Positions 3,601 to 62,700 of a DNA stretch of 64,000 nt are shown here, piece after piece. Below the pieces are notes generated by a model. It was not told where the DNA came from. It saw nothing but the letters and a program-made list of their open reading frames with translations, and made no database searches. The stretch lies in the IMG/VR virus record IMGVR_UViG_3300031237_000251. The stretch is one strand, 5' to 3'. This stretch comes from a virus. Position 1 is the first letter of the stretch, and each line of letters starts with the position of its first letter. The position numbers and the translations under genes are program-made.

Positions 3601-3606
3601 AAGCAA

Positions 3607-5214: not shown

Positions 5215-5275
5215 CGTCCGCATAGTGGAAACGATCCCAAAATAATGGAAATCGCATCTGCACAAGCTGGAAATG

Positions 5276-5309: not shown

Positions 5310-5314
5310 CATAG

Positions 5315-5361: not shown

Positions 5362-5404
5362 GATATAAAAAGCCAGGCATCACGCGGCTTACAGGCGAAG
5401 CGGC

Positions 5405-5476
5405 GTGCTAAAACGAAAAGAAAATAACGCCTCTGCAGGCCCCATTCTACGGGCCTCCCCGTTTGAGTTTTAGCAC
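5405..5476. repeat. 10-bp inverted repeat next to att, possible integrase arm-type sites
   Basis: GTGCTAAAAC (5405-5414) / GTTTTAGCAC (5467-5476). Confidence 0.5.
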
Positions 5477-5579
5477 TCTTTTTTGCCCCTCCTCCGCCCG
5501 TCCGGGCAATCAATTCCCTCCTGTAGAAACGCTCACTTTGCTACCCTAGACAGCTATCAATTTGCCACCGAAAACGCCC

Positions 5580-5762
5580 ATGACCACCAGCAGTAAGAGC
5601 GTCTTATCCGCCCTGGAGCAGGCCCAGGACATTCTCGCCAGATGGTTTGAGCCAGATGGAATATCAGCAGAGCAGGCCATGAATGAACTGTTGCCGATCT
5701 TGGATAACAAGAAGCTGGTGCGGGCGCAGCGCAAGCTTTGGCGTGAAATTGGTGATGACTGA
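5580..5762 (+). CDS. Small hypothetical protein
   Basis: MTTSSKSVLSALEQAQDILARWFEP..., amphipathic-helix pattern. Confidence 0.55.
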   Translation: MTTSSKSVLSALEQAQDILARWFEPDGISAEQAMNELLPILDNKKLVRAQRKLWREIGDD

Positions 5763-6255
5763 TCAGTCGAAGGCCGAAGCGCCGGTCTGCCGAGCGGAAT
5801 GAAGCGGCTCATCCTCTCCAGTCCGGACAACACTATCCCTTGCAGAAACGCTTTACACCAAGCGTAAACATCACCGCGCAGAGAGCAAGGCGGCCAGGAC
5901 AGGAAAGTTCTGGTTCCACGCCGCTCGTGGTCCTAAGCGGCCTGTCATGCCCGGCAGAAATCGGCCACTAGCAGATAATCGCTATACATCTCCCTCGACA
6001 CAAATGTCCTACAAGGATAATTTCTCGTTAGGCTGGCACGGTGCCACTGCCGTGCGCCCTTGGTTTACATCGTACAACTTGATTACTCAGTTGAAGCCTA
6101 TCTAGGTCGGAGGAGTTACATAAAAGCTTGGGAGCGCTTTGGCGTTACCGTTAGTAAGCATGGGGTTGGTTAGGGGCGGAGCACTTTGCTTGTGGCCCCT
6201 CCAAGCTACCGTCCTACTAACTTTGAAAAGGACAATTTGGATACGAGAAGATGCC

Positions 6256-7377
6256 ATGGTGGTGAAAAGAGATTCAGCATTTTACCGACGACTACAGTCA
6301 CGTAGGCAGGCGACCCCAAATATCAGCTCAAAGGAGACTAGCAGTAGTGGGTGGCGTGAGAAAGTTGCGCTACTGGGAGAATTGGCACAAATAATATTGG
6401 TAGTAGTAGCCGTATTTGGATATTTTTATACGGTCCGCCCGATTTATCAGAAAGATAGATTGGAAGAACAAGTGGCGGAATTTGAGGGATTGATAAAAGA
6501 GCAGAAGCCTAAGCTTGAAAGTTTGGTTGTCGAGTCAAATAGGCTTCGGTCAGAAAAAAATCAACTTAACGCAGAAAAAGAACGATTGATATCAGAGATA
6601 TCTAAAGCCCAGAAAGAAATGCTATTGGCAAAGGCTGAGAAAAAGAAAATCGAGGATCAAACTCAGTATATGGCTTATATGTATCACTTGCCAGATGGAA
6701 GGCCTGCAACTACTTCAGCTCAAGTTCTCGAGGTTCAGAAATTAAAGGTCCGCGAGAATTTCGCAAGAGGCACTCTATGGCAGTGCGAATTTAGGACGGA
6801 CGACGTTTTTCCAAGCCAGTATTTTGCGAAGGAGTCCGAAGAGGGTAGCGAATTTTTTCCCTTTACAGAGAAAGAAATAGAGTTATGGCGAAAGGAAGGA
6901 ACTGCTATTCCGGCTAAACGCGCGGCGAAGTGCCTAGAAGAGTTAGCGGTCAAATTTGAAAAAGCGAACGCCTCAAACCCTCAATTTTCAGGAACCGTTA
7001 AAGAAGTGGTTTCAAAGCTGCGAGTTAATTTGGAGGTGATCAGAGCTGAGAAGTGGAGCCCTCCAAGTAAGCCTGAGAATTTGATCAGTAAATTAAAGTC
7101 CACTATCCAGTCTGCGCGAGTGGAAAAAGATGCGGAAATAAAGAAAGTTAAGGCTGAGTACGGCGACTGGGAGAGCGTATGGGGAGATTCAAAAAGAGCA
7201 ATTTATAAAAATAACTATGAGGTCGGCCTGTCTAATGCAAAAATTACGGAATTTAATAAGATTTTTACTGCGAAATGGGAATCGCAGGGGGAGGCTAATA
7301 AGTTTAGAAAAAGCATGGATGAGGAAGTCCAGCGGCTTACAAAAAAAGCTACTGCCGGTCTATCGGTGTTGAAATAG
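6256..7377 (+). CDS. Membrane-anchored coiled-coil hypothetical protein (moron)
   Basis: AT-rich long ORF with one TM (LAQIILVVVAVFGYFYTV) followed by heptad-rich E/K sequence; start uncertain (track gives TTG 6139). Confidence 0.75.
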   Translation: MVVKRDSAFYRRLQSRRQATPNISSKETSSSGWREKVALLGELAQIILVVVAVFGYFYTVRPIYQKDRLEEQVAEFEGLIKEQKPKLESLVVESNRLRSEKNQLNAEKERLISEISKAQKEMLLAKAEKKKIEDQTQYMAYMYHLPDGRPATTSAQVLEVQKLKVRENFARGTLWQCEFRTDDVFPSQYFAKESEEGSEFFPFTEKEIELWRKEGTAIPAKRAAKCLEELAVKFEKANASNPQFSGTVKEVVSKLRVNLEVIRAEKWSPPSKPENLISKLKSTIQSARVEKDAEIKKVKAEYGDWESVWGDSKRAIYKNNYEVGLSNAKITEFNKIFTAKWESQGEANKFRKSMDEEVQRLTKKATAGLSVLK

Positions 7378-8008
7378 CGTTCCAAGTGGCTTCAGCTCGA
7401 GAAAATATATGACATCGCGCCGGATTCGCGATTGACCACCTGAATGACAGGCAAGATCGGGGCTGGAGGCAAATTCAGTGCCCGCTTCACGTCATATGGT
7501 CTTGAAGGACGACTTGGAAGACCTCCATGGCGATGTCCTTTGCGCTTGGGAGCCTGGGCAGAGCAAAGAGCCACCGACGCAAGAATTGATTGCGTGAATC
7601 GACCATAGATTCGTAGACGCCTTCAAACTGCTGTTTCTGGCCAGGAGCGGCTGCTTTTGGCCGCATCCTGCCCGTCGCCACTGTCCGCTTTGGGTCGCCT
7701 ACGGCCTGTCACGACTTTCGAGGATGAACAATCAATTTCACCGCGCAGACGCCTCCTGCGCGATGGGAGAGGAAGAGGCCTGCAGACGCTGCCGATCGAT
7801 GCACTCGAGCACTTGCCCGACGCAGCTCAGCCCCCCCTCCAGCGCATCGACAGCGGCGCGCCAGTCGTCATTGGTTTGCGGCGCTGAGCGCGCCGGCAGC
7901 CAGCATGAGGGCAGAGGGCAGCCGATCCGGACTGTGGTAGGCGGAGGGATCTGTAGTCGTTGCAGTAGGGACTACTGCTGAAGATCGGCGAGCCGAAGTG
8001 CTGAACGC

Positions 8009-8040
8009 AAAAAACCCCTGTCGGTGTGACAGGGGCTTTT
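8009..8040. terminator. Intrinsic terminator downstream of MCP1
   Basis: AAAAAA-CCCCTGTC-GGTGT-GACAGGGG-CTTTT. Confidence 0.8.
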
Positions 8041-8072
8041 GGTTTGGGGCTAGCCGGTGCCTCGCACCCAGG

Positions 8073-9578
8073 CTAGGTCAATGCTGGGATTGCCTTGATA
8101 GGCGCCCTGACGAGCAGCTCTGTTCCCCCCAGTCGGAAGTGGTCGATGGTCTCCAGAAGCTTGCTGGCCGTCTCGAGCAGTTCGCCGGCCAGTTGGCGGT
8201 TCGACTCGATCGCGTCATTGCTGGCGACCTGGGACTGGTTCATGAGCACGGCCGCATCGCCCAGCGCCTCGATATCGGCATGCTGTTGCTGGGACGTCCG
8301 GTCGATTTCCTGCATACGCTCGGCAACCTTGCGAAAGGCGGCCAGGATTTCCTGCATGATCTGCACCGAGTTGCGGGTCTGCTCCAGCCCGCCACTCACG
8401 CTATGCTCGGCGGTAGAGACCAGATCCCGTATCTGTCGGGCGATCTCGGTCGTGCGACCGGCTAGGGAACGCACCTCTCCAGCGACGACGGCAAAGCCCC
8501 TACCCTGCTCACCCGCCCGCGAGGCCTCGATGGCTGCGTTCAATGCCAGCAGGCTGGTCTGGGTGGTGATTTCGTCGATGCTGCCGAGCAGGCCGGCGAT
8601 GGACTGGGTATGCCGAGCAATGTCGCCGATAACGCTTTCCAGCGCATCGATGGTTTCCATCCCATTGCCGGCACGCTGTTCTATGGTGGCAGTGAGCTGG
8701 TTGGTCTGACGCACTTGCTCGCCGGCCAGACGGGTCGCTTCGCGAAGGTGCTGGCTACCCTCGGCGATGCGCTGGATCTGCAGGGCGTTCTGACTAGCCT
8801 GATCGGCAAGCTCGCTCTGGCTTGAACTCAATCGCCGACTGCCATCGCTGACTTGGCGCGCCACCTGCTGCGCTTGTTGCAAAGTGGCGCTCAGGTATTC
8901 CTGCATGCCGGCAAGCGCCGCCAGAGCTGGCCGCTGACGCTGCGCCTGGGGAATCTCAACGGCCAGGTCGCCCTCGCGTGCGCTCAGCGCAAACTCGGTG
9001 ACCGATAGGCCATCCCCGACCACGCCCTTCAGCACACGGCTCAGGTAGGCCAGTACCGCAGCCTGGGCAACCACCGCTCCGGCATGCATCAGCAAGCAAT
9101 GCACCAGTGCCGTCTTCAGGGAGTGGCCCGAGTGGTCGCCGCCTAGAGCGTAGATTTCCACCAGCCCATAGTCCTGCAACACGGTGAACAGTATGTGATG
9201 CACCGCGATGAACAGGGCGCCGATCAGGATCACTCGCCAGTCGGCATAGAGAATCAACGCGGAGAGCAGGATGAAGATGCTGAAATGCGCTTCGATCTGA
9301 CCATCGCTCAGGTCGATGAGCAGCGCCGAAGCGGTCATCATCAGGACGGCCATAGTGGCCGAACTAAGCAAGGTGCCGGGGTACTTGCGCATCAGCAGAT
9401 AGCTCGTCGTCCCGGCCAGCAGGACGATGAGAGAGGCCTCCAGCCAGCGTCCCTGGAAGATGCCAACGGCCATGCAGAGCAGCAGCATGGCCAGTGCCGG
9501 AAGCCATTCAAGGCGGTCAATGCGAGCACGATAAGCTTGGAACGTATCGGATGACGAACTCTTAACTCTAGGATTCAT
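8073..9578 (-). CDS. Methyl-accepting chemotaxis protein with an integral-membrane sensor region (MCP1)
   Basis: Signalling tip QTSLLALNAAIEASRAGEQGRGFAVVAGEVRSLA; 5-6 N-terminal TMs with EAHF...YADWR...AVHH motif. Confidence 0.92.
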   Translation of the reverse strand: MNPRVKSSSSDTFQAYRARIDRLEWLPALAMLLLCMAVGIFQGRWLEASLIVLLAGTTSYLLMRKYPGTLLSSATMAVLMMTASALLIDLSDGQIEAHFSIFILLSALILYADWRVILIGALFIAVHHILFTVLQDYGLVEIYALGGDHSGHSLKTALVHCLLMHAGAVVAQAAVLAYLSRVLKGVVGDGLSVTEFALSAREGDLAVEIPQAQRQRPALAALAGMQEYLSATLQQAQQVARQVSDGSRRLSSSQSELADQASQNALQIQRIAEGSQHLREATRLAGEQVRQTNQLTATIEQRAGNGMETIDALESVIGDIARHTQSIAGLLGSIDEITTQTSLLALNAAIEASRAGEQGRGFAVVAGEVRSLAGRTTEIARQIRDLVSTAEHSVSGGLEQTRNSVQIMQEILAAFRKVAERMQEIDRTSQQQHADIEALGDAAVLMNQSQVASNDAIESNRQLAGELLETASKLLETIDHFRLGGTELLVRAPIKAIPALT

Positions 9579-9962
9579 AAGAACATTCGCGGTCTGATGT
9601 GATAAAGGCAGGTTGTCTGCTCGGTTATCGAAGCCATAGCCGGACGGGCAACTGTCATAATGATGTCACAAAGACACTATCTCAGTGCATATCCCTGCAC
9701 CCCATTGGGGCATAAGCCAAAACAAGCCAATCAGACCGACGGCGAGCGAGACCAGCCTCGGCTTACCGTATGGACTGCACTCAGCTAGCAGCCACGCACT
9801 TTGGCCTCTAGGCTATCGCCCCCTCCGCAAGGGGCTCGTCCATATGGCAACAAACTCCCCCCAACCTCCTTTAGTCATATGCCACGGTAATGGCGATTAG
9901 CCATGTTAGGATGACTCCGACGTGTTTTTCTTGGCCGTCAAATACGTTGCGTGAAAAGGGGG

Positions 9963-9992
9963 TAGGCTCCGGTGCCCCCAACACCGGGGCCT
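9963..9992. other. Strong hairpin downstream of the giant gene
   Basis: TAGGCTCCGGTG-N6-CACCGGGGCCTA. Confidence 0.45.
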
Positions 9993-10091
9993 ATTCATTC
10001 CACTCGCCGCACCTCCAGTACCCAACCAGGCAGCCTGGCCGAAATCACCCTGTAAAGCCCCTCCTCGCTCCTCGCTTCATTCCCTTCGCTT

Positions 10092-47759: not shown

Positions 47760-47963
47760 TCAGGCAACTGATTGAGTTGGCTCAGCCTGAGCATCAGGGC
47801 TGATTCCTGGCTTCAGCTTTCCATTCGTGATTTTTTCCAGTTGGTACTGTCGGAGCTCAGGTACCTCCTCCCCCCACTGCCGCACAGCTTCATAAGTGAT
47901 GCCAAGAGCGCGGGCCAGCGCTGGGATGGAGCCGAAGTAATCAATTGCCGTCTGGCGTTTCAT
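47760..47963 (-). CDS. cro: Cro-like repressor
   Basis: MKRQTAIDYFGSIPALARALGITYEAVRQWGEEVPELRQYQLE. Confidence 0.88.
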   Translation of the reverse strand: MKRQTAIDYFGSIPALARALGITYEAVRQWGEEVPELRQYQLEKITNGKLKPGISPDAQAEPTQSVA

Positions 47964-47982
47964 AAAGGATCTCCAATACTCA

Positions 47983-48041
47983 CAAGCCAAATTCAAGCAT
48001 GCTTGTATTTATTAAGCAAGCATGCTTTGCAAGCCTCCTTG
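47983..48041. promoter_or_regulatory. Rightward operator cluster (OR-like)
   Basis: CAAGCATGCTTG (47994-48005), CAAGCATGCTTT (48017-48028), CAAGCCTCCTTG (48030-48041) between divergent cro and cI. Confidence 0.8.
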
Positions 48042-48053
48042 TACATTGAGCCA

Positions 48054-48734
48054 ATGAACATCACTGAACGAATTGAAAAGCTCGTACTCGCTAGAAGGCC
48101 CCAAATCGGGGTCCGCGGCGTAAAGCGGGATATCTCTAAGACCTGCGGTATCAGCTACGAAGCGGTGCGCCAGTGGTTTGCAGGGGATACTGGAAATATC
48201 AAGAACGAGAACCTGCTCGCCATCGCTGCAGGCTATGACACGACTGTTGATTGGCTCCTATCGGGAGAGGGCGAGCCTCCTTTCAGGAGTGCTGAAGAGC
48301 CCAGCAACGTCCTGCCTGTGACTCAACCAGAGCGCCTCTATCGCTACCCAGTTGTCAGCGAAGTGCAGGCCGGCGCGTGGACTGATGCCGTTCAGCCCTA
48401 TGAGCCGGGTGCAGAAGATCAATTTGAACTGACCGATTACCAGGCCCGAGGTCCTGCCTTCTGGCTGAGGGTCAACGGCGACTCGATGACCTCTCTCACG
48501 CCGCCCAGCATTCCAGAGGGCTGCTTCGTGCTGGTCGATACCGGCTTAACCGCACAACCAGGCGATCTGGTGGTCGCCAAGCTTGATACCGAAGAGAAAG
48601 CCACCTTCAAGAAGTTGGTTTCCGATGCTGGCCAGCTCTATCTCAAGCCGCTGAACCCTGCTTATCGAGTGATCCCCATCGACGGAAATTGCCGACTGAT
48701 CGGGGTTGTGAAGGAAGCGAAAATGAAACTATGA
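48054..48734 (+). CDS. cI: CI-like repressor (HTH plus S24 autopeptidase)
   Basis: HTH ISYEAVRQW; cleavage-site-like VQAGAW; VNGDSM and ATFKKL catalytic motifs. Confidence 0.92.
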   Translation: MNITERIEKLVLARRPQIGVRGVKRDISKTCGISYEAVRQWFAGDTGNIKNENLLAIAAGYDTTVDWLLSGEGEPPFRSAEEPSNVLPVTQPERLYRYPVVSEVQAGAWTDAVQPYEPGAEDQFELTDYQARGPAFWLRVNGDSMTSLTPPSIPEGCFVLVDTGLTAQPGDLVVAKLDTEEKATFKKLVSDAGQLYLKPLNPAYRVIPIDGNCRLIGVVKEAKMKL

Positions 48735-48779: not shown

Positions 48780-49013
48780 ATGATTAACCACAAAAAGATG
48801 CGCGAAGAGTTCGAAGCTTGGATGGAGCAGCGCTTTGGCGTAAATATCGAAAAAGTGCAGAGCGAATGTGGATCGCTACTTTTCGATGCCTGGCAAGCCT
48901 CCCGTGCAATGCTCGTTATTGAACTGCCAGCCGATGACCTGAGCCTTGAGCGAAGCAACGGAATCGACGAGTGCCGCGATGCCATTGCGGCCGCCGGCAT
49001 TCGTACCACCTGA
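48780..49013 (+). CDS. Small phage hypothetical protein, paralog of 56559-56822
   Basis: KMREEFE.W ... W.ASR....ELP ... AAGIRT shared with 56559. Confidence 0.7.
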   Translation: MINHKKMREEFEAWMEQRFGVNIEKVQSECGSLLFDAWQASRAMLVIELPADDLSLERSNGIDECRDAIAAAGIRTT

Positions 49014-49095
49014 GGCACCTACTTGAACGCCTCCCTTGGATACATCGAGGCAGGCCAGCCCGTATTCGCAGCGCAGCTAGCCTGCCTCGACTGTT

Positions 49096-50754
49096 TTAGA
49101 ACGTCTCCCAGTCCGACTCTGCGGCAACCGGTGCAGCCACCAGTTTGGTCTTCGCAGTAGTCGGCCTCGTTGGAGCAGCAATCCTCATAGATGGGCGATA
49201 CGATTCGCTGCTGCCAACCTTGAAGACTGCAACTGCAGCACGCAACTCTTCCGCCTGCTCAACCAGTGACTGTGATGCAGTCGAAGCCTCCTCGACCAGA
49301 ACAGCATTCTGATGCGTCACCTGATCCAGCTGGACCACGGCCGTATTGATTTGACCAATGCCGGAGCTCTGCTCTTCCGATGCTGCCGCAATCTCTTGCA
49401 TGAGGTCGGTCACGCGCTTCACCGCCTCAACAGCCTCGCCGATCGTGCTACCCGCCTCCTCGACGAGCTTTGAGCCGACACCAACTCGCGATACCGACTC
49501 GTGAATCAGGTCATGAATCTCCTTGGCCGCCGCTGCGCTACGCTGGGCAAGGGTGCGGATCTCTCCAGCCACTACGGCAAAACCGCGTCCATGCTCACCC
49601 GCACGCGCCGCCTCAACGGCTGCATTGAGCGCCAGGATGTTGGTCTGGAACGCAATACCCTCAATCACGCTGATGATTTCGGTCACTTTGGTCGAGCTGT
49701 TCGAGATCCCTTGCATGGTCTCAACGACCCGACCAACCACCTCGCCACCACGCTGCGCGATATCCGAAGCGGAAATGGCTAGCGCGGTCGCCTGCTTCGC
49801 ATTATCGGTATTGTGGTGAACCGTGCTCGTCAGTTCCTCCATACTCGAAGCTGTTTCCTGCAGCGAGGCAGCTTGCTCCTCTGTCCGTTGGGACAGATCG
49901 GTATTGCCATTCGCAATCTGCTCACTTGCAGACGCCACTGCCTCCGCATTCTGGCGAACACTAGACACAACCTTGACCAGGCTCGCCTGCATGTCCTTCA
50001 GGGCTCGCAGCAGTTCGGCAGTCTCATTCTCACCACTGGCATCGAACTGCAGACTCAAATCCCCATTGGCCACCGAGCGCGAGATCTCCACGGCCTTGCT
50101 TAGCGGACGAGTAACGGAGCGGATAATCCACATAGCCATGAATACAGCGATCACCACTGCCGCAATACCACACAGCCAGATGATGGCTTTCATGCTGGCA
50201 ATTTCGCCGAACGCCTGATTCGCAGACTCCTCCATCGCATTGTTCTGAAAAGCGATCAGGTCATCCAGCGTCGCAAGGTAAGCCAGTTGGGCTGGGCGCA
50301 CCTCGCCCAACAACACTCCCTTAGCCTCATTGATCTTTCCATCGACAATCAGGCCAACGAATTTAGCTTCCAATGCCACGAACTTGCGGCTTTTGTCCAC
50401 GGAGTTGGCAAGCAATGCCTTCCCTTTTTCAGTTCGAACTCGCGGCTCAAGCACTCCCCACTGCTCGGTGATGCCCTTGTGGGCCAACTCGACCTGCTTG
50501 AGTTGCTCCCTGATATCCGCAGGGTCATCCATGAGCAGCGTGTTACGCAGGTAACGAGCAATCTGATTTAAACCGTCCTTGGCATTGTTGAGCGCAGCGA
50601 TTTTCACATAACGGTCGTGCACCACCGTGTCGAAGGTGGCGTCTACATGATTGGCCTTGAATAGTGAGACACCGCCCATCAGGATGATCAGTAGTGTCAG
50701 GATGCCAAACCCGAGCTCGAGTCTGGTTGAGATTTTCATGTCGTTGAGATTCAT
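49096..50754 (-). CDS. Tar/Tsr-like methyl-accepting chemotaxis protein with C-terminal pentapeptide DWETF (MCP2)
   Basis: 2 TM, periplasmic helical sensor, HAMP, RTEEQAASLQETASSMEELT methylation helix, QTNILALNAAVEAARAGEHGRGFAVVA tip; ATG 50754 preferred. Confidence 0.93.
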   Translation of the reverse strand: MNLNDMKISTRLELGFGILTLLIILMGGVSLFKANHVDATFDTVVHDRYVKIAALNNAKDGLNQIARYLRNTLLMDDPADIREQLKQVELAHKGITEQWGVLEPRVRTEKGKALLANSVDKSRKFVALEAKFVGLIVDGKINEAKGVLLGEVRPAQLAYLATLDDLIAFQNNAMEESANQAFGEIASMKAIIWLCGIAAVVIAVFMAMWIIRSVTRPLSKAVEISRSVANGDLSLQFDASGENETAELLRALKDMQASLVKVVSSVRQNAEAVASASEQIANGNTDLSQRTEEQAASLQETASSMEELTSTVHHNTDNAKQATALAISASDIAQRGGEVVGRVVETMQGISNSSTKVTEIISVIEGIAFQTNILALNAAVEAARAGEHGRGFAVVAGEIRTLAQRSAAAAKEIHDLIHESVSRVGVGSKLVEEAGSTIGEAVEAVKRVTDLMQEIAAASEEQSSGIGQINTAVVQLDQVTHQNAVLVEEASTASQSLVEQAEELRAAVAVFKVGSSESYRPSMRIAAPTRPTTAKTKLVAAPVAAESDWETF

Positions 50755-50903
50755 ATCAGTCTCATTGGGGAATAACAGTCGATAGCGATCGCCAGCGTCA
50801 CTGGCTCGCCTGAGCTTCTTAAGAAGGGAAAGGTTGTGGGGGTTGATTCCTGCGTCTTGGATCGATGGACACCAAGACCTGAATATCTTTGTTATGCCCG
50901 ACT

Positions 50904-50929
50904 GATCGGCATACATGAGGAATTCTTAA
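50904..50929 (-). promoter_or_regulatory. Sigma28 (FliA)-type promoter for MCP2
   Basis: TTAAG-N14-GCCGATC versus consensus TCAAG-N14-GCCGATA. Confidence 0.65.
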
Positions 50930-51070
50930 GGGCAAAATAGAATTTTTTGCACTAAAAGCGAGCACTACAGCTGCCCCGCTCCAGGGCAGGGCTTCTCGTT
51001 TTCATAACGCCAACATGACGAAACATTCACGCACCTACCCTTAACCTACAAGGGTTGTGCTTTTCCATTT

Positions 51071-51098
51071 AGCCCCGCTCCCCCAGCGGGGCTTTTTA
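51071..51098 (+). terminator. Intrinsic terminator-like hairpin
   Basis: AGCCCCGCT-CCCCC-AGCGGGGCT-TTTT. Confidence 0.6.
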
Positions 51099-51161
51099 TT
51101 TCTACTTTCCCGACCACTCCTTCTGAGATAGCATTTTGCCTCTATCTGCAAGGAGCTCCGC

Positions 51162-51650
51162 ATGGCACGACGCCGCAATCCCGATTCCCTCTCCCACATT
51201 TGCCTACGCCTAACCCTAGCGGCCGGCTTCGGTCTCTTCATGTGGCTCGTAGCCGCGCAGGTCATTACCCGCACGTTCACGACCATGCAGGAAGACATGC
51301 TGGCCAGCAACAGAGCGGCCCAAACGCAGGCCCAGGCGAAGATGAGGGAGGCTCAAGCTCAGCAGGCCGCTCGGCAACATTCGCCCCAGCAGCGCCAGAC
51401 AATGTCCGTGTCTGAGGTGCAGCAGCCCACTGCTCCCAACAAGCCAGGCAGATCCGATGCCCTAAGACAGCAGGTCGAGCAGCAGAGGCTGAAAGATGCG
51501 GCCTGGGAGCAGTTCTACCAAGCGCCGAGGGGGTGTGATGTCTGGAGGAGTGACCAGCACATGGTCCAATGCCAGAACGATATGATGAAGGCTAAGCGTG
51601 AGTTCGAGCATCGCTGGGCTACTGGGGAGTTTGCTCAGCCAAGTTCCTAA
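51162..51650 (+). CDS. Membrane-anchored hypothetical protein
   Basis: N-terminal TM, Gln-rich linker, C-terminal WEQFY...GC...QCQN. Confidence 0.7.
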   Translation: MARRRNPDSLSHICLRLTLAAGFGLFMWLVAAQVITRTFTTMQEDMLASNRAAQTQAQAKMREAQAQQAARQHSPQQRQTMSVSEVQQPTAPNKPGRSDALRQQVEQQRLKDAAWEQFYQAPRGCDVWRSDQHMVQCQNDMMKAKREFEHRWATGEFAQPSS

Positions 51651-51924
51651 TTTCGATGTGAGCTCTCGCCTCCTGCAACTGCGCCCTCAGCCATACCCGC
51701 TCCTGCTCTGCAACCTGCGCCTGTACCTCTCGCAGAAACAACGCGAGGCGTAAGCGCCGCTCCGATAGAGATAGAGAATCCCATCCCCAGAATAGCCACT
51801 CCCCGTCCTGTGCATCCTGATCCTCTGACCCCGAAAGCACAGCAGGGCGCATCACCCTCTCCCAGCAGAGCCCTGTCATAAATAAACCGCAACAACCGAG
51901 AAACAATGAAAAGAGGTCGGTCAT
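51619..51924 (-). CDS. Hypothetical protein
   Basis: N-terminal hydrophobic segment and coiled C-terminus; convergent overlap. Confidence 0.5.
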   Translation of the reverse strand: MTDLFSLFLGCCGLFMTGLCWERVMRPAVLSGSEDQDAQDGEWLFWGWDSLSLSERRLRLALFLREVQAQVAEQERVWLRAQLQEARAHIEIRNLAEQTPQ

Positions 51925-52389
51925 CGCTAGATCGTCCCTGGTAGTGTCATGACTGCAATTTAACCGTGTCTTGTCATATTTCCGACAAATACAGCCTGAA
52001 ATTGTGACAAATCACACATAGATCCAATGGGTAATCACCAGGCAGCCGCCCCTCCAGGCCTCTACTCCATCGGGAAGAGATAGCAAAAAGACCATTACTG
52101 ATTCGTACCTAAAAAGCGGCTGCAGCCCCGTGCCGGGCGTTGATAAATCCGCTGTAGGTCAACTACGGCCTGTCGTGCACGGTATCTGCCGGCCTGTAGA
52201 GCTATGCCTCCATGCGCGTGCCCGGATAGTGCCGAGCCTGCCCACTAACCATTAGGCGAATTGCTACAACACCTGCAAGCGCCCTCAATAGGCCATCCTC
52301 GCGAGCCACGCTAGGGGCTATGAAGCGCCATCCGGGCTCGCGATGTTCATCCGTGCGCCGAACGGCGCTGTTTCACCCCTGGAGATAGC

Positions 52390-53676
52390 ATGACTGAGAA
52401 GAAAGCGCAGTTGATCATCGAAGGCCGGCAGCCGGTCGAGCTTCCAGTCCTGTCTGGCACACTCGGACCAGATGTCATCGATGTGCGGGCTTTATCGAGT
52501 ACGGGATGCTTCACCTACGACCCGGGCTTCATGTCCACCGCCTCCTGCTCGTCGAAGATCACCTACATCGACGGCGACAAGGGCATCCTGCTGCACCGTG
52601 GCTATCCCATCAAGCAGTTGGCCGAGCGTTCTGACTACTTGGAAACATGCTACCTGCTGCTGAACGGCGAACTGCCGGACGCCGCGCAGAAGACAGAATT
52701 CGTCGCAAAAGTGAAAGACCACACGCTGGTCCACGAGCAGATGCGCAGCTTCTTCAACGGGTTCCGCCGCGACGCCCACCCCATGGCTGTACTATGCGGT
52801 GCAGTTGGGGCACTCTCGGCCTTCTACCATGACTCCCTGGACATCACTAATCCGCAGCACCGGGATATTTCCGCGATTCGCCTGATAGCCAAGATGCCAA
52901 CCCTGGTGGCCATGGCCTACAAGTATTCGCATGGCCAACCGATGATGTACCCGGTCAACAGCCTGAGCTATGCAGAAAACTTCCTGCATATGATGTTCAA
53001 TACGCCAGCCCAGTCGAAACCAGTGAGCCCTGTGCTGGCCAGGGCCATGGACCGCATCTTCATCCTGCACGCCGACCACGAGCAAAACGCATCGACTTCC
53101 ACTGTGCGTTTGGCCGGCTCCTCGGGAGCCAATCCGTTCGCCTGTATCGCTGCGGGCATCGCCGCGCTGTGGGGCCCGTCGCATGGTGGCGCTAACGAAG
53201 CCGTGCTGCGGATGCTCAATGAGATCGGCGACGTGAAACACATCGAGCAGTACGTGGCCAAGGCCAAGGACAAGAACGACCCGTTCAAGCTGATGGGATT
53301 CGGTCACCGCGTCTACAAAAACTTCGACCCGCGCGCCAATGTCATGAAGCAGACCTGCGACGAGGTACTTAGCGAGCTAGGCATCAACGACCCGCTGCTG
53401 GAGTTGGCGATGAAGCTGGAGGAGATCGCCCGCCACGACGAATACTTCATCGAGCGCAACCTCTACCCGAACGTCGATTTCTACTCGGGAATCATCCTCA
53501 AGGCAGTCGGGATCCCGACCAACATGTTCACCGCCATATTTGCCCTAGCTCGGACCGCCGGCTGGATCTCGCACTGGAAGGAAATGGTCTCCGGACCGTA
53601 CAAGATTGGCCGCCCGCGCCAGCTGTACACTGGGCACACACAGCGCGATATCCTCCCGCTCGCTCAGCGTCGCTGA
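52390..53676 (+). CDS. gltA: Type II citrate synthase
   Basis: [47 protein letters not shown] and YPNVDFYSG with the catalytic His, His and Asp intact; RBS GGAG. Confidence 0.96.
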
Positions 53677-53758
53677 CTGCTATGGTCGGCAGGGAAAACC
53701 GGTGTTAGGTACGACGCCGGCTTTCGATGAACAGCCCCATTGGGTATGAAGCCCCCAA

Positions 53759-53790
53759 AGAAAAGGCCCCGACTAATGCCGGGGCCTTTC
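53759..53790. terminator. Bidirectional terminator between gltA and the flxA-like gene
   Basis: GAAAAGGCCCCG-ACTAATGC-CGGGGCCTTTC. Confidence 0.75.
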
Positions 53791-53804
53791 TCATTCAAGT
53801 GTCT

Positions 53805-54266
53805 TTAAGCAGTGGCAGATACCATATTGCCCGAGCTGCCAGAGCCTCCGCTCTTCAGTGCTTCGGAGAGCTGGCCGTAGGCCTGCTGTATAGATGCGTT
53901 GAGAGTGACGATCTGCGCCTGCAGCGATGTCTCGGTAATGGTCTTGGTTTGCTCGTCCTGGTTAGACGCCTCGACCTGCTGCAAGCGCTGCTGCAACTCC
54001 TGCAACTGCTTCTGCAGTTTAGCGATCTGCTCCTTGAGTGCTTTGACAGTGGGATCCTGGCTGTCGCTGCTATCGCTGGATTCCGAACTACCCCCGATGC
54101 CGCCTGCTTTGCCACTACCGGCCAGCGTCTGGACGTTAATGGTTGCGCTCGAGTTTGCGCCGCCACTCGGCCCCCGGGAGTTACTGCCCTGGACATTGCT
54201 CACATCGCCGGGGGTCTGGCTGTACGAAGAAACAACTTGGGGCGTTACTGCGGCGATACTCACCAT
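53805..54266 (-). CDS. FlxA-like family protein
   Basis: Ser/Gly-rich N-terminus, coiled coil VKALKEQIAKLQKQLQELQQRL...LQAQIVTLNASI. Confidence 0.65.
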   Translation of the reverse strand: MVSIAAVTPQVVSSYSQTPGDVSNVQGSNSRGPSGGANSSATINVQTLAGSGKAGGIGGSSESSDSSDSQDPTVKALKEQIAKLQKQLQELQQRLQQVEASNQDEQTKTITETSLQAQIVTLNASIQQAYGQLSEALKSGGSGSSGNMVSATA

Positions 54267-54346
54267 GATAGCTACCTACCTGAAAAGAACGGCGGTCTAA
54301 AGCGACCGCTCTACGACGGGCATTGTAAGCCCACTACTACGAATAG

Positions 54347-54372
54347 TATCGGCAGTCATTGGTGCGTCTTGA
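54347..54372 (-). promoter_or_regulatory. Sigma28 (FliA) promoter for the flxA-like gene
   Basis: Exact TCAAG-N14-GCCGATA, 80 nt upstream of the ATG. Confidence 0.8.
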
Positions 54373-54553
54373 GCCACGGAGGGGAAACTAAGCAGCACCC
54401 GCCATCCGGCTCTCGTAGGGAATGCGCAAACCATTATGCAACTGGTGGCTGTTTTTTAGCTGTTCCAGCGCCAGGTCTGATTTAAGTCTATAGGTAAGAT
54501 ACCGCCTGGATTTATCTTACTCGAAGCAACTACTCGGCCATACGAAGCACTAT

Positions 54554-54910
54554 ATGATGAAAAAACCTTCACCGCTGGCGGGCATGATGCTTCTAACAAT
54601 ATCCGCAACTCTTATGGGCGGCCATGCATCTGCATCATCTCTTTGTAGCCATGGCGTCGTGTCGGTAGGCGACTCTTACGAAGCTGTTGAGAAAAAATGC
54701 GGAAAACCTGATCACGAAACGATTCTACAAGTTGCTCAAAACGCCCCATCAAACAGCCAATACCCTCATGCAGCAATCACTCTATGGTTTTACGGTCCTA
54801 AAAATGGTGCCGTAACCCAAATAAGGTTCTCGGATAACCAGGTGATAAACACGATAACCTATCGACCGAACCGAGAAGAAGAGCAAGACCTCTACAAGAT
54901 AGATCCCTGA
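54554..54910 (+). CDS. DUF2845-like secreted protein
   Basis: Signal peptide, C...VSVGDS..AV.KKCGKP...W.YGP.NG. Confidence 0.75.
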   Translation: MMKKPSPLAGMMLLTISATLMGGHASASSLCSHGVVSVGDSYEAVEKKCGKPDHETILQVAQNAPSNSQYPHAAITLWFYGPKNGAVTQIRFSDNQVINTITYRPNREEEQDLYKIDP

Positions 54911-54931
54911 TAACCAACAAGACGATGTCTC

Positions 54932-55237
54932 TTACTCTCGCTCAGTACGTATCTCAACAAGCTCCCCCTCAACAAATCGAAAATACTTATAGGCACCGCC
55001 ATCCGGGCCATAAACCAGCGTCGCCTCACTAACAGCCCCCTTTTTGGGAACGCCATTATTTCTCAATGCAGGCCCCCACTCCTCTCGCCTAGTGGGTTTT
55101 CCACATTTCGCTAAAACCTGATCAATCGAATCTCCTGTACTGACAATCTCTGTTCCGCAGCGAACGGTTGAAGCATAGACCTCGCCCAAAGAGAGCATCA
55201 AAACACTTCCCAAGAGAAAAGAAATCCAGTCTTTCAT
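54932..55237 (-). CDS. DUF2845-like secreted protein (convergent paralog)
   Basis: Signal peptide, RCG..IVSTGDS..QVLAKCGKP...YGPDGG. Confidence 0.78.
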   Translation of the reverse strand: MKDWISFLLGSVLMLSLGEVYASTVRCGTEIVSTGDSIDQVLAKCGKPTRREEWGPALRNNGVPKKGAVSEATLVYGPDGGAYKYFRFVEGELVEIRTERE

Positions 55238-55479
55238 AAATCATTTCACCGACAGTAATTTAAGGATCAGACGGGGGCATTGGATGGCATGATGTTCATC
55301 ATATTGCCCACCGCAGCACCCCGTCATATTGGGGCATGTGTACCCACAAGTCATACTTTGGCCGATTATCTTTGGCAGTCGATCACGAGCACTACACGAT
55401 ACTTCTATCTGACTGAAAAATTTACATGCGACCAAAGGCCACCAGCCTGAGTGCTTGATCTCCCCGCATGCGACAAATA

Positions 55480-55495
55480 CTGTATAGATAAACAG
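55480..55495. promoter_or_regulatory. LexA (SOS) box
   Basis: CTGTATAGATAAACAG = CTGT-N8-ACAG, 18 nt upstream of ATG 55514. Confidence 0.8.
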
Positions 55496-55513
55496 CAGTA
55501 GTAAGGAAGCATC

Positions 55514-55747
55514 ATGGAGACCACTCAGTCCACCTACACCGCCCTCACCCGCCGCGTGCAAACGATCATCGCCACGCCCCGCGCCCAAATTGAGCACCAG
55601 GCGGTGATCTATCGACAGAGTGGTGAGTCGCCCCAGGACTGGGAGCGGCTCCTCGAGGAAATCCGGGACGCCGAAGGCGTGACCATGAGCGCACGCGAGG
55701 ATGGAGGCGTCCATCTGGCTTGGTATGTAGAACCGGCCGATTTCTGA
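55514..55747 (+). CDS. DUF1654-like protein, SOS-regulated
   Basis: YTALTRRVQTIIATPRAQ...DWERLLEEI...GGVHLAW; SOS box upstream and terminator GCCCGC/GCGGGT-T7 downstream. Confidence 0.78.
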   Translation: METTQSTYTALTRRVQTIIATPRAQIEHQAVIYRQSGESPQDWERLLEEIRDAEGVTMSAREDGGVHLAWYVEPADF

Positions 55748-55812
55748 TCCATCCCCTTTCTCCGATCCGAGCCCGCCAAGTGCGGGTTTTTTTCTGTCTC
55801 AAATATTTTTTG

Positions 55813-58061: not shown

Positions 58062-58856
58062 ATGGAAATCGTAACCGTGCGAGCCAGCTCGCTTGCGGAG
58101 CTATTCGACTGCCCGGCGCGCTGGGAAGCCAAGCATTTGCTCGGCATGCGTAACCCGTCTTCCGGGGCAGCCCTACTCGGCACTGCGGTCCACGCCTCTA
58201 CCGCCCTGTTCGACCAAGCGCAGCTTGATGGCAATCCCATCAACGCCTGCGAGGCCGCTGGGGCTCTGGTCGATGCGCTCTATCACCCGGATCAGGAAGT
58301 GGATTGGGAAGACTCCAGCCCCAAAGCAGTCGAGCCAATTGGTTTGGCATTGCATGCCCGCTACTGCAGCGAGATTGCACCGAAGCAGGACTACATCGGG
58401 ATCGAGGTCGCTTGCGAGCGTCTCGAAATCACCGACATCGGCCTTGCCCTGACGGGAACCACCGACCGGATTCGCCGGGTGGACGGCCAGCTCGGGATTG
58501 CCGATCTCAAGACTGGCGGGCGGGCGGTAGGCAGCGACGGGCATGCCGTCACCCAAGGCCACGGCCCGCAATTGGGGGTGTACGAGTTGCTCGCCGAGTT
58601 CGCCCTTGGCCAGCCGCTCACGGCTCCGGCCCAGATCATCGGCATGCAGACCGGCAAGACGGCCAACAGCCAGAAGGTAGGAATTGGCACCGTCGAGAAT
58701 GCCCGCGCTGCCCTGGTCGGCGATGAAGACTCCCCCGGCCTGCTCCAGCACGCCGCCCGAATCATCCATGGCGGGTCGTTCTACGGAAACCCGAAGTCGG
58801 TGCTGTGCTCAGCCCGCTACTGCCCCCGCTACCAATCCTGCCGCTTCAAGGGCTGA
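58062..58856 (+). CDS. PD-(D/E)XK exonuclease (Cas4/AddB-like, Cys cluster)
   Basis: RASSL...CPARW, GTTDR...IADLKTG, QLGVY, CSARYCPRYQSC. Confidence 0.85.
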   Translation: MEIVTVRASSLAELFDCPARWEAKHLLGMRNPSSGAALLGTAVHASTALFDQAQLDGNPINACEAAGALVDALYHPDQEVDWEDSSPKAVEPIGLALHARYCSEIAPKQDYIGIEVACERLEITDIGLALTGTTDRIRRVDGQLGIADLKTGGRAVGSDGHAVTQGHGPQLGVYELLAEFALGQPLTAPAQIIGMQTGKTANSQKVGIGTVENARAALVGDEDSPGLLQHAARIIHGGSFYGNPKSVLCSARYCPRYQSCRFKG

Positions 58857-58871
58857 CCACAAGGAGCCGAC

Positions 58872-59852
58872 ATGTCCAGTACCGCCACTCTAAATCAGCT
58901 CAAGAATCCTGCTCCACGCGAGGCATCTATGCCCATGGTGACCATGGGCTTCGGCAGCCTGCAAAGCTTTGAGCTGATGCAGCGCGCTGCCAAAGTTCTC
59001 GCTGGCTCGACCCTCGTCCCGACCGCCTACCGCGCTTTCAAAGAGGTGAAAGAGTTCGGACAGGTTGTCGGTTATGAGCCGAACGCAGCAGGCCTTCCAA
59101 ACTGCATCGTTGCGCTAAACATGGCGCAGCGTATGGGCGCGGATCCCCTGATGGTGATGCAGAACCTTCACATCATTGAAGGACGACCGAGTTGGTCGAG
59201 CACCTTCATCATCGCCGCAATCAATAACTGCGGTCGCTACAGCCCTCTGCGCTTCGAGCTGAGCGAGCCAAGCAGGCCGTTTGAGCTCGAGTACACCGCG
59301 GTTGAGTGGGTTTCCCAGCCCGGTAGCAACAAGAAGAAGAAACGTGACATCCAAAAGAAGGCCACCGTGCGCCATCAGACCTGCAAAGCCTGGGTGATCG
59401 AGAAGGAAACCGGTGAGCGCCTTGAGTCTCCCATCGTGTCTATTCAAATGGCGATTGACGAAGGCTGGCTGACGAAGAATGGCAGCAAGTGGCAAACGAT
59501 TCCCGAATTGATGCTGCGCTACCGCTGCGCGAGCTTCTTCGGTCGTCTCTATGCCCCCGAGTTGCTGATGGGCTTGCAGACGGTCGAAGAAACGCAGGAC
59601 TTCATCGAGGCCGAACCAGATGGTCGAGGAGGCTACTCCGTCAACCTCGACCATCTGCAGAGTCGGGCCGGGGATGAGCCCGCGCCGCCACCAGTGCCAG
59701 ATGCCGATGATGGGCATACCACCCTCCCCCATGAGCCAGCCGAGCAGGTGAACCTGCAGACCGGCGAGATCACCAGGCAACCGGAACCGGTAGCAGAGAC
59801 CGTCGGCCTGGCCGAGGAGCCTGGTACCACCGTCAGCCTGCAGCTGGAGTAG
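58872..59852 (+). CDS. RecT-like ssDNA annealing protein
   Basis: NCIVALNMAQRMGADPLMVMQNLHIIEGRP, WQTIPELMLRYRCASFF; follows the exonuclease. Confidence 0.75.
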   Translation: MSSTATLNQLKNPAPREASMPMVTMGFGSLQSFELMQRAAKVLAGSTLVPTAYRAFKEVKEFGQVVGYEPNAAGLPNCIVALNMAQRMGADPLMVMQNLHIIEGRPSWSSTFIIAAINNCGRYSPLRFELSEPSRPFELEYTAVEWVSQPGSNKKKKRDIQKKATVRHQTCKAWVIEKETGERLESPIVSIQMAIDEGWLTKNGSKWQTIPELMLRYRCASFFGRLYAPELLMGLQTVEETQDFIEAEPDGRGGYSVNLDHLQSRAGDEPAPPPVPDADDGHTTLPHEPAEQVNLQTGEITRQPEPVAETVGLAEEPGTTVSLQLE

Positions 59853-59855
59853 CCC

Positions 59856-60056
59856 ATGCTCAGCCGGACTGTCGACGAAATCTTCGATCGCGTCGAGGAG
59901 TTCACCTGCCTCCTCGGCGCAGCCGAGCTGAATGCCAGCACCGACTGGGAAGAACAGTTCGTCACCGACCTGCAGGCCAACTTCAAACGCTACGGCCCGC
60001 ACACCTACCTCAGTGACGCCCAGCACGAAACCCTCGAACGCATTGCCAACGCATAA
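59856..60056 (+). CDS. Small hypothetical protein
   Basis: WEEQFVTDL...YGPHTYLSDAQ..LERI. Confidence 0.7.
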   Translation: MLSRTVDEIFDRVEEFTCLLGAAELNASTDWEEQFVTDLQANFKRYGPHTYLSDAQHETLERIANA

Positions 60057-60066
60057 GGCCCCGCCC

Positions 60067-60855
60067 ATGAACCATATCAGCCATTCGATTGACCGCGCCC
60101 TTGATGACATGCTGGAAAGCGCCCAGCTGACCGACATCGACCTGAGCGAAGAGCTCGAGCCCATCCAGATGGCCAGCGAGACCCTCGGTCGCGACCTGCT
60201 GCAGGGCTGCCTGCAGGAAGTGCGCAACCTGCCCGAGGTCTGGCCCAAACTGAGCGAGCACTGCCAGGCCGACGTCATCGAACGCCTGACGGCCCGAATC
60301 GCCTCTTCGGTGAAGATGGCCGTTCGAATCCTGGCGGCAGACAACCGCCCCACCATCGACGGCATTCTGGAGTCGGTTGCCGTGAAAGACGGCATCAAGG
60401 CGACTTTCAAGGTCAGCCAGACGAACCCCGGGCGCCATGATCTGATCGACTCCGTGAACAAGGTCTGCCTGCTGGTGGTGGCCAGCGCAGCCGATCACCT
60501 GGGCGGGATGGAGGAGGTAAAGCCGGATCCCGACCAGTCGCCTCTGGATCTCAATGGCGGCGACGGAGACTTCGAAGAGGAAGTGGCGCGCGCCGAGCGG
60601 GAGTTCGCAGCCCCTGCTCCAGAAGAAACCTTCGGCGGCCGCACGATCGATGAGCTGGCCACCGACATCGCCAACCGCAAGAAAACCATCGATGCCAACT
60701 ACCTGCAGAGCCGCTATGCGCTGAGCAGCGACCAAGCGCTCCAGGTGATCGCCCAGCTTCTTGAGCGGAACGTGGTTGCGCTGGACGGCACCCATCACGA
60801 TGACGAGATGCAAACCGTCTACTGCGTCCTCAGCGACAACCTCAGCGTGGAGTAG
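60067..60855 (+). CDS. Phage protein with a C-terminal FtsK-gamma-like winged helix
   Basis: C-terminal IDANYLQSRYALSSDQALQVIAQLLERNVV resembles FtsK gamma. Confidence 0.65.
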   Translation: MNHISHSIDRALDDMLESAQLTDIDLSEELEPIQMASETLGRDLLQGCLQEVRNLPEVWPKLSEHCQADVIERLTARIASSVKMAVRILAADNRPTIDGILESVAVKDGIKATFKVSQTNPGRHDLIDSVNKVCLLVVASAADHLGGMEEVKPDPDQSPLDLNGGDGDFEEEVARAEREFAAPAPEETFGGRTIDELATDIANRKKTIDANYLQSRYALSSDQALQVIAQLLERNVVALDGTHHDDEMQTVYCVLSDNLSVE

Positions 60856-60861
60856 CGACAG

Positions 60862-62700
60862 ATGAAACTCGACCGCATCCTGGTCCAGAACATCCTGGGC
60901 CTGCGCCATGCCGATCTGGCGCTAACCGCTCCGATCACCCTCGTCGCCGGCCCCAATGGGGCTGGTAAATCCAGCCTGGGAGACGCCATTTCCATGGCGC
61001 TGCTGGGTAAACCCAAGCGCGTCAGCCTGAAGAAGGACATCGGGCAGTTGGTTACCGATGGCGCCAAGAAAGGCCTGGCAGCTGTATGGGCCGATGGCGA
61101 GCCGCTCGGCGAGCTCGTGCTGCCCAGTGATACCCATGCAGTGAACCCGCAAGATGGCTGGCAGTACCTGCCTTTCGTGCTGGATGCAGCCGCATTCACC
61201 ACGGCCCCGGCCGATGAGCGCCGCAAACTGCTGTTTCAGCTGACCGGCTGCCGCGCGACGCCAGATGCCATCGAGGCGCGGCTGATCGAGCTGGGGGCCG
61301 ATCCAGCCAAGGTCGCCGCCATCAAGCCGCTGCTGCTCTCCGGCTTCCCGGGCGCCAGCAAGGAAGCCAAATCCCGCGCCACCGAAGCCAAGGGCGCCTG
61401 GCGGGGAGTGACCGGCGAGACCTACGGCGATAAGAAGGCCGAAGGCTGGGAGCCGGCGCTCCCCACCACGCAGGTCGACGAGCAAGAGCTCGCAGAGAGC
61501 CGGAAGGCGCTGCAGGCGATCGAGACTGATTTGGAGGAAGCCCAGCAAACCCTGGGCGCCCACAAGGCCACTCGAAGCAATCATGCCGGCCTGGAAACGC
61601 GCATCGCCGAGCTCGAAGAACTGGCCGGGCTCGTCCAGCGCCGGCAGAACAAGCTGGACCACGACCAAGCTGACCTCCAGCACTGGAAAAGCCAGCTGGC
61701 TGCAGCCGAGGGGGCCGGCGCAGGGGGGAAACAAGGGCTGGTGCATGACATGGCCCGCAACCTGGCCGAGTGGCAGGCGCTGGCCAAGCGAACGGATGGC
61801 GTGAAGGAGAAGAACGGACCGACTACGCCCTGGCTCGTGCTCGGCGAGATGGACCGTCTCCACCTGCTGATGGACCGCTACCTCGAAGAGCATGGCCCGC
61901 TCGGCAGCGAGAGCAGCGAGAGCAGCGATCCGGATCAGACCAAGCGGGTACCGGAGTTCCGGCAGTACGTGGACAATCTCACCCGTACCGTCGCCAACAG
62001 CCAGCGCGATCTGACCGCGGCAGAAAGCGCCGCAGCCCAGGCCGCGGAGCTGAAGGCCCAACTGGATGCGGCCCCCAGCGAAGATGCTATCGCCAATGCC
62101 GAGCAGCTCATTAACGGGCTGCGCCAGCAGCGCGACACGCTGCGCGCCAAGGTGGAGGCTCTGCAGGCGGCATCCCAGGCCATTGCCCAGCACGACAGTT
62201 GTATCCAGCAGGCTGCGAAACACCATGCCGACGTGCAAGCCTGGACCCTCATCGGTGATGCACTGGCGCCCGATGGCATTCCGTCCGAGATGCTGGCCAA
62301 GGCCCTGAGCCCGATCAATGCCACCCTGCATGCCCTATCCAGTCGCGCCGGCTGGCCAGGGGTATCGGTGAGCAGCGACATGGAAGTGACTGCCAACGGC
62401 CGGACCTACGTCTTGCTCTCCGAGTCAGAGCAGTGGCGCTGCAATACCCTGATCGGCCTGGCTATCGCCCAGGCATCGGGCTTACGCCTGGCCGTGCTGG
62501 ATCGTTTCGACGTGCTGGACTTGCCCAGCCGGGCCCAACTGCTCGGCCTGCTGATCCAGATGGCCAAGGCTGGCGAAATCGACAGCGTCATCGTGTCAGG
62601 CACCCTGAAAGCGAAACCTGCTGCACTACCGACCGAGATCAATGCCGTTTGGATTGAGAGGGGTACTGTCGAAAGTACCCCCGTCAGTGCGGCTGCATGA
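60862..62700 (+). CDS. SMC / Rad50-like ABC ATPase with coiled coil
   Basis: Walker A GPNGAGKS, signature LSESEQ, Walker B AVLDRFD. Confidence 0.88.
   Translation: MKLDRILVQNILGLRHADLALTAPITLVAGPNGAGKSSLGDAISMALLGKPKRVSLKKDIGQLVTDGAKKGLAAVWADGEPLGELVLPSDTHAVNPQDGWQYLPFVLDAAAFTTAPADERRKLLFQLTGCRATPDAIEARLIELGADPAKVAAIKPLLLSGFPGASKEAKSRATEAKGAWRGVTGETYGDKKAEGWEPALPTTQVDEQELAESRKALQAIETDLEEAQQTLGAHKATRSNHAGLETRIAELEELAGLVQRRQNKLDHDQADLQHWKSQLAAAEGAGAGGKQGLVHDMARNLAEWQALAKRTDGVKEKNGPTTPWLVLGEMDRLHLLMDRYLEEHGPLGSESSESSDPDQTKRVPEFRQYVDNLTRTVANSQRDLTAAESAAAQAAELKAQLDAAPSEDAIANAEQLINGLRQQRDTLRAKVEALQAASQAIAQHDSCIQQAAKHHADVQAWTLIGDALAPDGIPSEMLAKALSPINATLHALSSRAGWPGVSVSSDMEVTANGRTYVLLSESEQWRCNTLIGLAIAQASGLRLAVLDRFDVLDLPSRAQLLGLLIQMAKAGEIDSVIVSGTLKAKPAALPTEINAVWIERGTVESTPVSAAA

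Follow-up and report, generated by a model that had tools for sequence, protein, structure and literature searches.

When a prophage gene appears to be read by the flagellar sigma factor of its host, the question arises whether the phage lineage built the promoter or whether the gene was captured with a promoter that it already had. This question is raised by a stretch of 64,000 nucleotides of viral DNA, the IMG/VR record IMGVR_UViG_3300031237_000251 (hereafter the window, with positions counted from its first letter). Two genes of a lambdoid prophage in it, one encoding a FlxA-like protein and the other a chemoreceptor termed MCP2, are each preceded by a candidate promoter for the flagellar sigma factor sigma-28 (FliA). 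The original prediction took these promoters as a sign of a recurring phage strategy of co-opting the host motility programme. We favor, with a probability of roughly two in three, a different reading, where two self-contained cargo units were imported with the sigma-28 promoters typical of their gene families, and where FliA polymerase would read them in lysogens while the repressor silences the phage.

Two Candidate Sigma-28 Promoters in the Window

The sequence TCAAG-N14-GCCGATA occurs exactly at 54372..54347 on the minus strand, oriented towards the FlxA-like gene, and TTAAG-N14-GCCGATC occurs exactly at 50929..50904 on the same strand, oriented towards MCP2. Both boxes therefore stand as they had been described, and they are the sole two matches in 64 kb. 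With the looser pattern TNAAG-N14-GCCGAT, the window still gave two matches, both of them these boxes, against an expected 0.11, and two or more matches were seen in none of 100 shuffles of the window. Allowing two mismatches brought the counts to background level, thus the sigma-28 signal rests on near-exact matches.

The published sigma-28 consensus is TAAAGTTT-N11-GCCGATAA (PMC7286023, PMC12784957). The two -35 elements, TCAAG and TTAAG, are of the TAAAG/TCAAG type, and after a 14-nucleotide (nt) spacer following the pentamer, the -10 elements GCCGATAC and GCCGATCA each agree with GCCGATAA at seven of eight positions; in the related loci L052, L057, and L058, the -10 of the FlxA box agrees at all eight. 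The original description of a Pseudomonas FliA consensus was correct in that the boxes match the sigma-28 consensus, but naming Pseudomonas was imprecise, the nearest genome being an Azotobacter with the regulator FlhC (see below), and the wording “TCAAG-t-N12-GCCGATA” for Pseudomonas was not found in the literature searched. Transcript starts were predicted from the fliC promoter of P. aeruginosa, where the -10 lies at -15 to -8 (PMC12784957). This puts the start for the FlxA-like gene (box at 54347..54372, minus strand) near 54338 and that for MCP2 (box at 50904..50929, minus strand) near 50895, with predicted leaders of about 72 and 141 nt, respectively.

The FlxA box is kept in all seven related loci (L052-L058), where the bases just after the -10 vary. 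The MCP2 box is identical in contig C6 of Azotobacter bryophylli and in locus L072, and a similar TTAAG-N14-GCCGTTA in a conserved CCCTTAAGAA context lies upstream of two MCP2 relatives with 63-65% identity in the sensor (L073 and L074). Judged from sequence, the strand of the boxes, their position upstream of the genes, and their conservation fit late flagellar promoters of the sigma-28 class.

The nearest genome, A. bryophylli KCTC 62195 (G001), on which all inferences about the host rest, served as calibration. It encodes fliA and the enteric-type master regulator FlhC, which fits what has been reported about FlhDC of A. vinelandii (PMC2885672). Its 4.6 Mb hold 11 matches to TNAAG-N14-GCCGATA, compared with three for the reversed control; six of the 11 are on the flagellar contig, and five precede flgK, fliD, motA, cheB, and the flagellin gene. 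The -35 is TCAAG before flgK and motA and TAAAG before fliD, cheB, and flagellin. The motif is therefore a good marker of sigma-28 promoters in this lineage, and we assume that the host of the window prophage is an Azotobacter-type soil bacterium.

The FlxA Family and the Origin of its Promoter

The FlxA-like gene (53805..54266, minus strand) encodes a protein of 153 amino acids (aa), and its ATG lies 80 nt downstream of the -10. It was assigned through family PF14282, FlxA-like clusters of the ESM Atlas, and an alignment with 22 homologs (A2). The match to PF14282 scored 30.7 bits over a cut-off of 26.3, though the unrelated coiled-coil family ATG16 scored higher (33.8). The Atlas neighbors are FlxA-like clusters at 0.94-0.96, with PF14282 on 53% of the members of one cluster, and the alignment reveals a helical hairpin and an SGxxVSTTA tail in common. 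The window protein likewise consists of a Ser/Gly-rich disordered N-terminus, a helical hairpin, and a C-terminal SGxxVSxTA tail; in the AlphaFold model (AF2), the N-terminal 67 residues are disordered and the helices span residues 72-100 and 105-140. BLASTP linked it only weakly to E. coli FlxA, through 32 coiled-coil residues at E 0.006. A fold search with the model returned generic two-helix hairpins only (best E 0.35), and the structural neighbors in the Atlas, all with TM scores below 0.55, were uninformative.

Homologs were found in 37 of 201 Pseudomonadaceae species genomes and, with this query, in none of the six species genomes of the genus Azotobacter; close homologs in a set of 5.8 billion proteins numbered only three. 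We then surveyed the 30 best FlxA loci of Pseudomonadaceae, among which kin are not independent, and found a perfect box in 11, a box with at most one mismatch in 19, and with at most two in 25. In the best-scoring boxes the spacer is always 14 nt, and the -10 mostly ends 30-35 nt before the start codon. The reverse strand gave no box with at most one mismatch and one with at most two in the same 30 loci, the downstream regions gave none, and among 600 shuffles 18 reached two mismatches and none had fewer. Twenty of these loci, examined over 20 kb, all lie in conserved chromosomal surroundings and belong mostly to four synteny groups; the neighbors scanned at five of them are of housekeeping type, with argH, cyaA, corA, GST, der, rmuC, and a GreB-like gene among them. 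Since the boxed copies sit on chromosomes, the sigma-28 box is a property of the gene family. A sigma-28 promoter is thus likely the normal promoter of these gene families and would have arrived with the captured genes rather than been invented by the phage.

It had also been proposed to survey prophage FlxA-like genes for sigma-28 boxes, and here no FlxA-like gene was found in phages or viral contigs. The protein had no counterpart in 50,697 phage records, none in IMG/VR with either the single sequence or alignment A2, none in genome_contigs by single-sequence search, and no family in PHROG. The DNA of 43-64 kb of the window had no match in the phage collection, and the stretch is present in DNA runs of many studies of soil, sludge, wastewater, and sediment.

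Two hairpins accompany the gene. In the leader, after the sigma-28 box and before the ATG, a terminator-like hairpin (54292..54309, minus strand) consists of GCGGTC-loop-GACCGC with a T-rich run behind it; its stem is preserved through G-U changes in L052 and L057, and it may act as an attenuator. The leader folds are without significant stability (z -1.9 and -1.6). Downstream, between the convergent FlxA-like and citrate synthase (gltA) genes, a GC-rich hairpin at 53755..53792, GGCCCCG-loop-CGGGGCC followed by TTTTCTTT, reads as a likely two-way terminator.

MCP2 and the Cargo of a Lambdoid Prophage

MCP2 (49096..50754, minus strand; 552 aa) consists of a 4HB/TarH sensor, a HAMP domain, and a Tsr-class signaling domain ending in DWETF (Pfam; phrog_8572, E 3.5e-120). 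Its start is placed at the ATG at 50754, 149 nt downstream of the -10. An extended open reading frame (ORF) of 606 aa from 50916 was rejected, since its ATG lies inside the promoter spacer, and both L072 and the copy of A. bryophylli have ATA at this position. MCP2 aligns with E. coli Tsr without a gap from HAMP onwards (E 4e-91), compared with an E value of just 4e-15 for the P. putida-type receptor PcaY. The gapless cytoplasmic domain and a C-terminal xWxxF, here DWETF after a Pro/Ala/Thr linker, are those of the Tsr (36-heptad) class. The sensor is closest to Burkholderiales receptors, with 38-60% identity. With at least 10 Tsr-like receptors known from A. bryophylli (45-69% identity), the prophage receptor fits the signaling system of the host. 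In IMG/VR nothing was found for MCP2, and in the phage collection its matches were confined to contigs of bacteria or to short fragments classed as phage but lacking annotation.

A long hairpin (49045..49091; 17-19 bp, -49.8 kcal/mol, z -3.95) lies between MCP2 and the convergent repressor operon, with a T-run after it on the plus strand only. The A. bryophylli copy of MCP2 (L009/L103; contig C6, 463-2267) is present as two overlapping ORFs of 165 and 436 aa, either through a frameshift or through an assembly error in this 5.9-kb contig. The relatives L073 and L074, from metagenome 3300028024, adjoin integrase fragments and IS21 or mutator transposases, and this receptor type seems to be carried by mobile elements of several kinds. 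A second chemoreceptor gene, with an MCPsignal domain only (8073-9578, minus strand), lies at the opposite end of the prophage beside a giant tail or ejected-protein gene, and no sigma-28 box was found upstream of it.

The late genes of the prophage and its replication genes (DnaT-like and lambda P-like) occupy the minus strand up to 47.4 kb. They are followed on the plus strand by a CI-like repressor with a helix-turn-helix and an S24 peptidase domain (47772..48734; Pfam, phrog_4), whose true start is probably further in (the homolog in L072 has 226 aa), and by a small phiTE_015-like phage gene of phrog_343 (48780..49013), which in L072 also stands between repressor and chemoreceptor. From repressor to exonuclease the order is MCP2 (minus), ORF162 (plus), citrate synthase (plus), the FlxA-like gene (minus), two DUF2845 genes, a DUF1654/phrog_2707 gene (plus), and a second phrog_343 gene (plus). 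This is the layout of lambda, with the early-left operon running rightwards into the recombination genes at 58062..62700 on the plus strand, namely a PD-(D/E)XK exonuclease, RecT, phrog_6576, and an SbcC-like ATPase. ORF162 (51162..51650, plus strand) encodes a conserved, membrane-anchored phage early protein, with a membrane helix at the N-terminus and a tail rich in Gln, and it has no Pfam or PHROG family; its copy in L052 is 93% identical, and a DNA match of 76% identity lies in the early-left arm of a prophage on A. bryophylli contig C29. The citrate synthase gene (52390..53676, plus strand; Pfam E 1.4e-143) is intact with 428 aa, and its product is 84% identical to that of the chromosomal gltA of A. 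bryophylli, located elsewhere in that genome. The convergent gltA-FlxA pair recurs in four metagenome contigs (L053-L055 and L057) with 99-100% identity over the parts covered. The two DUF2845 genes (Pfam) are convergent (54554-54910 on the plus and 54932-55237 on the minus strand), and chromosomal paralogs of A. bryophylli (C28, 147-149 kb) match them at 74-84% DNA identity. The DUF1654/phrog_2707 gene, a phage early gene (55514..55747, plus strand), adjoins the FlxA-like gene here as well as in L052-L054 and L057. Long minus-strand ORFs at 55.2-58.2 kb, without family matches, were discarded as they probably overlap real small phage genes on the plus strand.

Related contigs repeat parts of this arrangement. 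L052 (15.7 kb) continuously carries ORF162, an antisense FlxA-like gene, DUF1654, phiTE_015, exonuclease, RecT, SMC-like, Arc, and integrase genes, with DUF4238 in the position of gltA. MCP2 adjoins the phiTE_015 gene and the S24 repressor in both L072 and A. bryophylli C6, with Cro and CII also present in L072. The C29 prophage of A. bryophylli, integrated after pheT, has late genes of 90-97% identity and shares ORF162, and the cargo is absent from it. The guanine-plus-cytosine (G+C) content of the cargo is 51-59% and that of the phage genes 62-73%. The cargo thus shows the features of a moron, i.e., a position between phage genes, a promoter and terminator of its own as read from sequence, a patchy occurrence in relatives, and a deviant G+C content. 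Because phage genes are interleaved and other contigs have the same layout, MCP2 and the FlxA-like gene are cargo of one lambdoid prophage, antisense to its early-left operon, and the earlier view of them as prophage cargo holds. The window includes neither the att sites nor the integrase of this prophage. Its left flank (1-10000) is low in G+C (45-55%) and contains a weak integrase-like ORF (4363-5214, plus strand; 98% identity to A. bryophylli C30); this flank probably represents a distinct island that adjoins the prophage.

Contigs from RNA libraries of four runs cover parts of the coding regions of MCP2, gltA, and FlxA, and 54388-55800 is covered in no run; such contigs may include DNA and cannot show transcript starts.

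Competing Explanations and Known Systems

We therefore describe the locus as follows, under the reading that the promoters came with the cargo. Foreign genes of lower G+C would have been inserted among the early-left phage genes, with the FlxA-like gene and MCP2 opposing the phage operon, each preceded by a predicted sigma-28 promoter and followed by a strong hairpin. While the repressor silences the early operons in a lysogen, host RNA polymerase with FliA would read the two genes, timed with the late flagellar and chemotaxis genes. MCP2, which has the cytoplasmic architecture and the CheR/CheB-tethering tail of the Tsr-like receptors of A. bryophylli, could then join the host array and add a sensing specificity. 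FliA dependence, the timing, and the entry of MCP2 into the array are what we infer; expression would then be confined to motile cells, as originally suggested. Several observations weigh against this picture. The closest chromosomal FlxA homolog (G068, 41% identity) and the beta-proteobacterial homologs of MCP2 (38-51% identity) have no box, and for this reason the import of the promoters with the genes is no more than likely. In MCP2, the -10 has C in place of the consensus A, and the leader, at about 140 nt, is long. Contig X16 of the RNA libraries (50651-51028, with 14 mismatches) spans the predicted MCP2 start, which could be explained by a start further upstream, by origin from a relative, or by carried-over DNA. 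In addition, the presence of fliA in the host is assumed from A. bryophylli.

The strongest competitor is that the phage lineage itself selected or built the sigma-28 promoters, so that, under a recurring strategy, production of the cargo is limited to motile cells. In its favor, one prophage holds two separate sigma-28 genes, the FlxA-like gene retains its place and box in several mosaic relatives, the Qin prophage of E. coli also has a sigma-28 flxA beside its immunity region, and no FlxA-like gene of their own was found in the six Azotobacter-genus genomes with our query. However, the box is the rule among chromosomal FlxA-like genes, the MCP relatives of 63-65% identity are boxed outside this phage, the other chemoreceptor gene of the same prophage is unboxed, and the phage records and IMG/VR held no FlxA-like gene. 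We thus consider this origin unlikely: the phage would have imported an already-wired gene, therefore the proposed recurring strategy is not borne out. More improbable still is that the boxes are relics or unused, the genes being silent or read from other promoters or by read-through. The contig across the predicted MCP2 start, the imperfect -10 of MCP2, and the split copy in A. bryophylli would agree with disuse, yet both boxes are kept while adjacent bases drift, and read-through cannot express two genes that are antisense to the phage operon. Moreover, a scan of 7.3 kb gave a single weak sigma-70-like site, which is upstream of neither gene.

The direction of the two units also permits the idea that their transcripts serve chiefly as antisense RNA to the early-left and repressor operons, which would couple the control of lysogeny to motility. 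Both units indeed run against the plus-strand phage operon, and MCP2 converges on the repressor operon at a distance of 83 nt, but the stable 17-19-bp hairpin parts these two, the FlxA-like gene is likewise followed by a hairpin and T-run, and both ORFs are intact, conserved protein genes, so that we regard such a role as very improbable. Least credible to us is that 49-55.5 kb is host or island DNA caught between two separate prophage fragments and not phage cargo at all. A housekeeping-type citrate synthase, the lower G+C, and a window that lacks the att sites and integrase of this prophage could suggest it; against this, the phage genes phrog_343, ORF162, and DUF1654 alternate with the cargo and run in operon direction, the operon of L052 extends without a break from ORF162 across the FlxA-like gene up to the integrase, and the A. 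bryophylli gltA, just 84% identical, lies elsewhere on its chromosome. As for what the captured promoters and genes may do, it is possible, if doubtful, that through lysogeny an Azotobacter-type host acquires a module timed by sigma-28, in which a FlxA-like protein is joined by a Tsr-class receptor with a foreign sensor and a CheR/CheB-tethering tail, while the second receptor and the citrate synthase are encoded elsewhere in the prophage. Motile lysogens would then follow cues other than those of non-lysogens, to the benefit of the prophage.

Host flagellar sigma control of a prophage gene is already known for flxA of the Qin prophage in E. coli K-12 (b1566). Its transcript decreased 28-fold on deletion of sigma-F and increased eightfold on its overexpression (PMC1935009), and we found TAAAG-N14-GCCGATA 24 nt before its ATG, which bears out the earlier statement that it is a FliA-dependent prophage gene. 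It is a gene of PF14282, the family for which the window gene scores above the cut-off, and like the window gene it lies in a lambdoid prophage, near the immunity region (dicA/dicC), opposed to its neighbors, antisense between relBE and dicC. The two differ in that Qin flxA is on the cro side with a leader of 24 nt, whereas the FlxA-like gene of the window is on the early-left side with 80 nt and a terminator-like hairpin, belongs to another host family, and has chemoreceptor and citrate synthase genes as fellow cargo. The window thus provides a second, predicted case, from an unrelated lambdoid lineage and a different bacterial family, and it includes a complete chemoreceptor under predicted sigma-28 control.

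Chromosomal FlxA-like genes of Pseudomonadaceae (for example L077, L079, L084, and L087) share the helical hairpin, the SGxxVSTTA tail, and a box with a 14-nt spacer, but they lie in housekeeping synteny, their -10 ends 30-35 nt before the start, and their identity is at most 41-45%. The box retained across this family marks FlxA as a widespread and little-studied late flagellar gene, and a lysogen would offer a simple system both for FlxA function and for the effect of a prophage receptor on chemotaxis. MCP2 resembles E. coli Tsr (MCP I; PDB 6S1K, 3ZX6, 1QU7) in its gapless alignment from HAMP to the end, flexible linker, and xWETF tail; unlike Tsr, it is prophage-borne and has a sensor nearest to those of Burkholderiales receptors. 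Finally, lambdoid lysogenic-conversion morons such as rexAB of lambda also occupy the slot next to the repressor gene and, as predicted for the window cargo, are expressed in lysogens without recourse to the lytic programme. Morons of the rexAB type use a repressor or sigma-70 promoter, whereas the cargo of the window is antisense to the operon and predicted to be read with an alternative sigma factor of the host.

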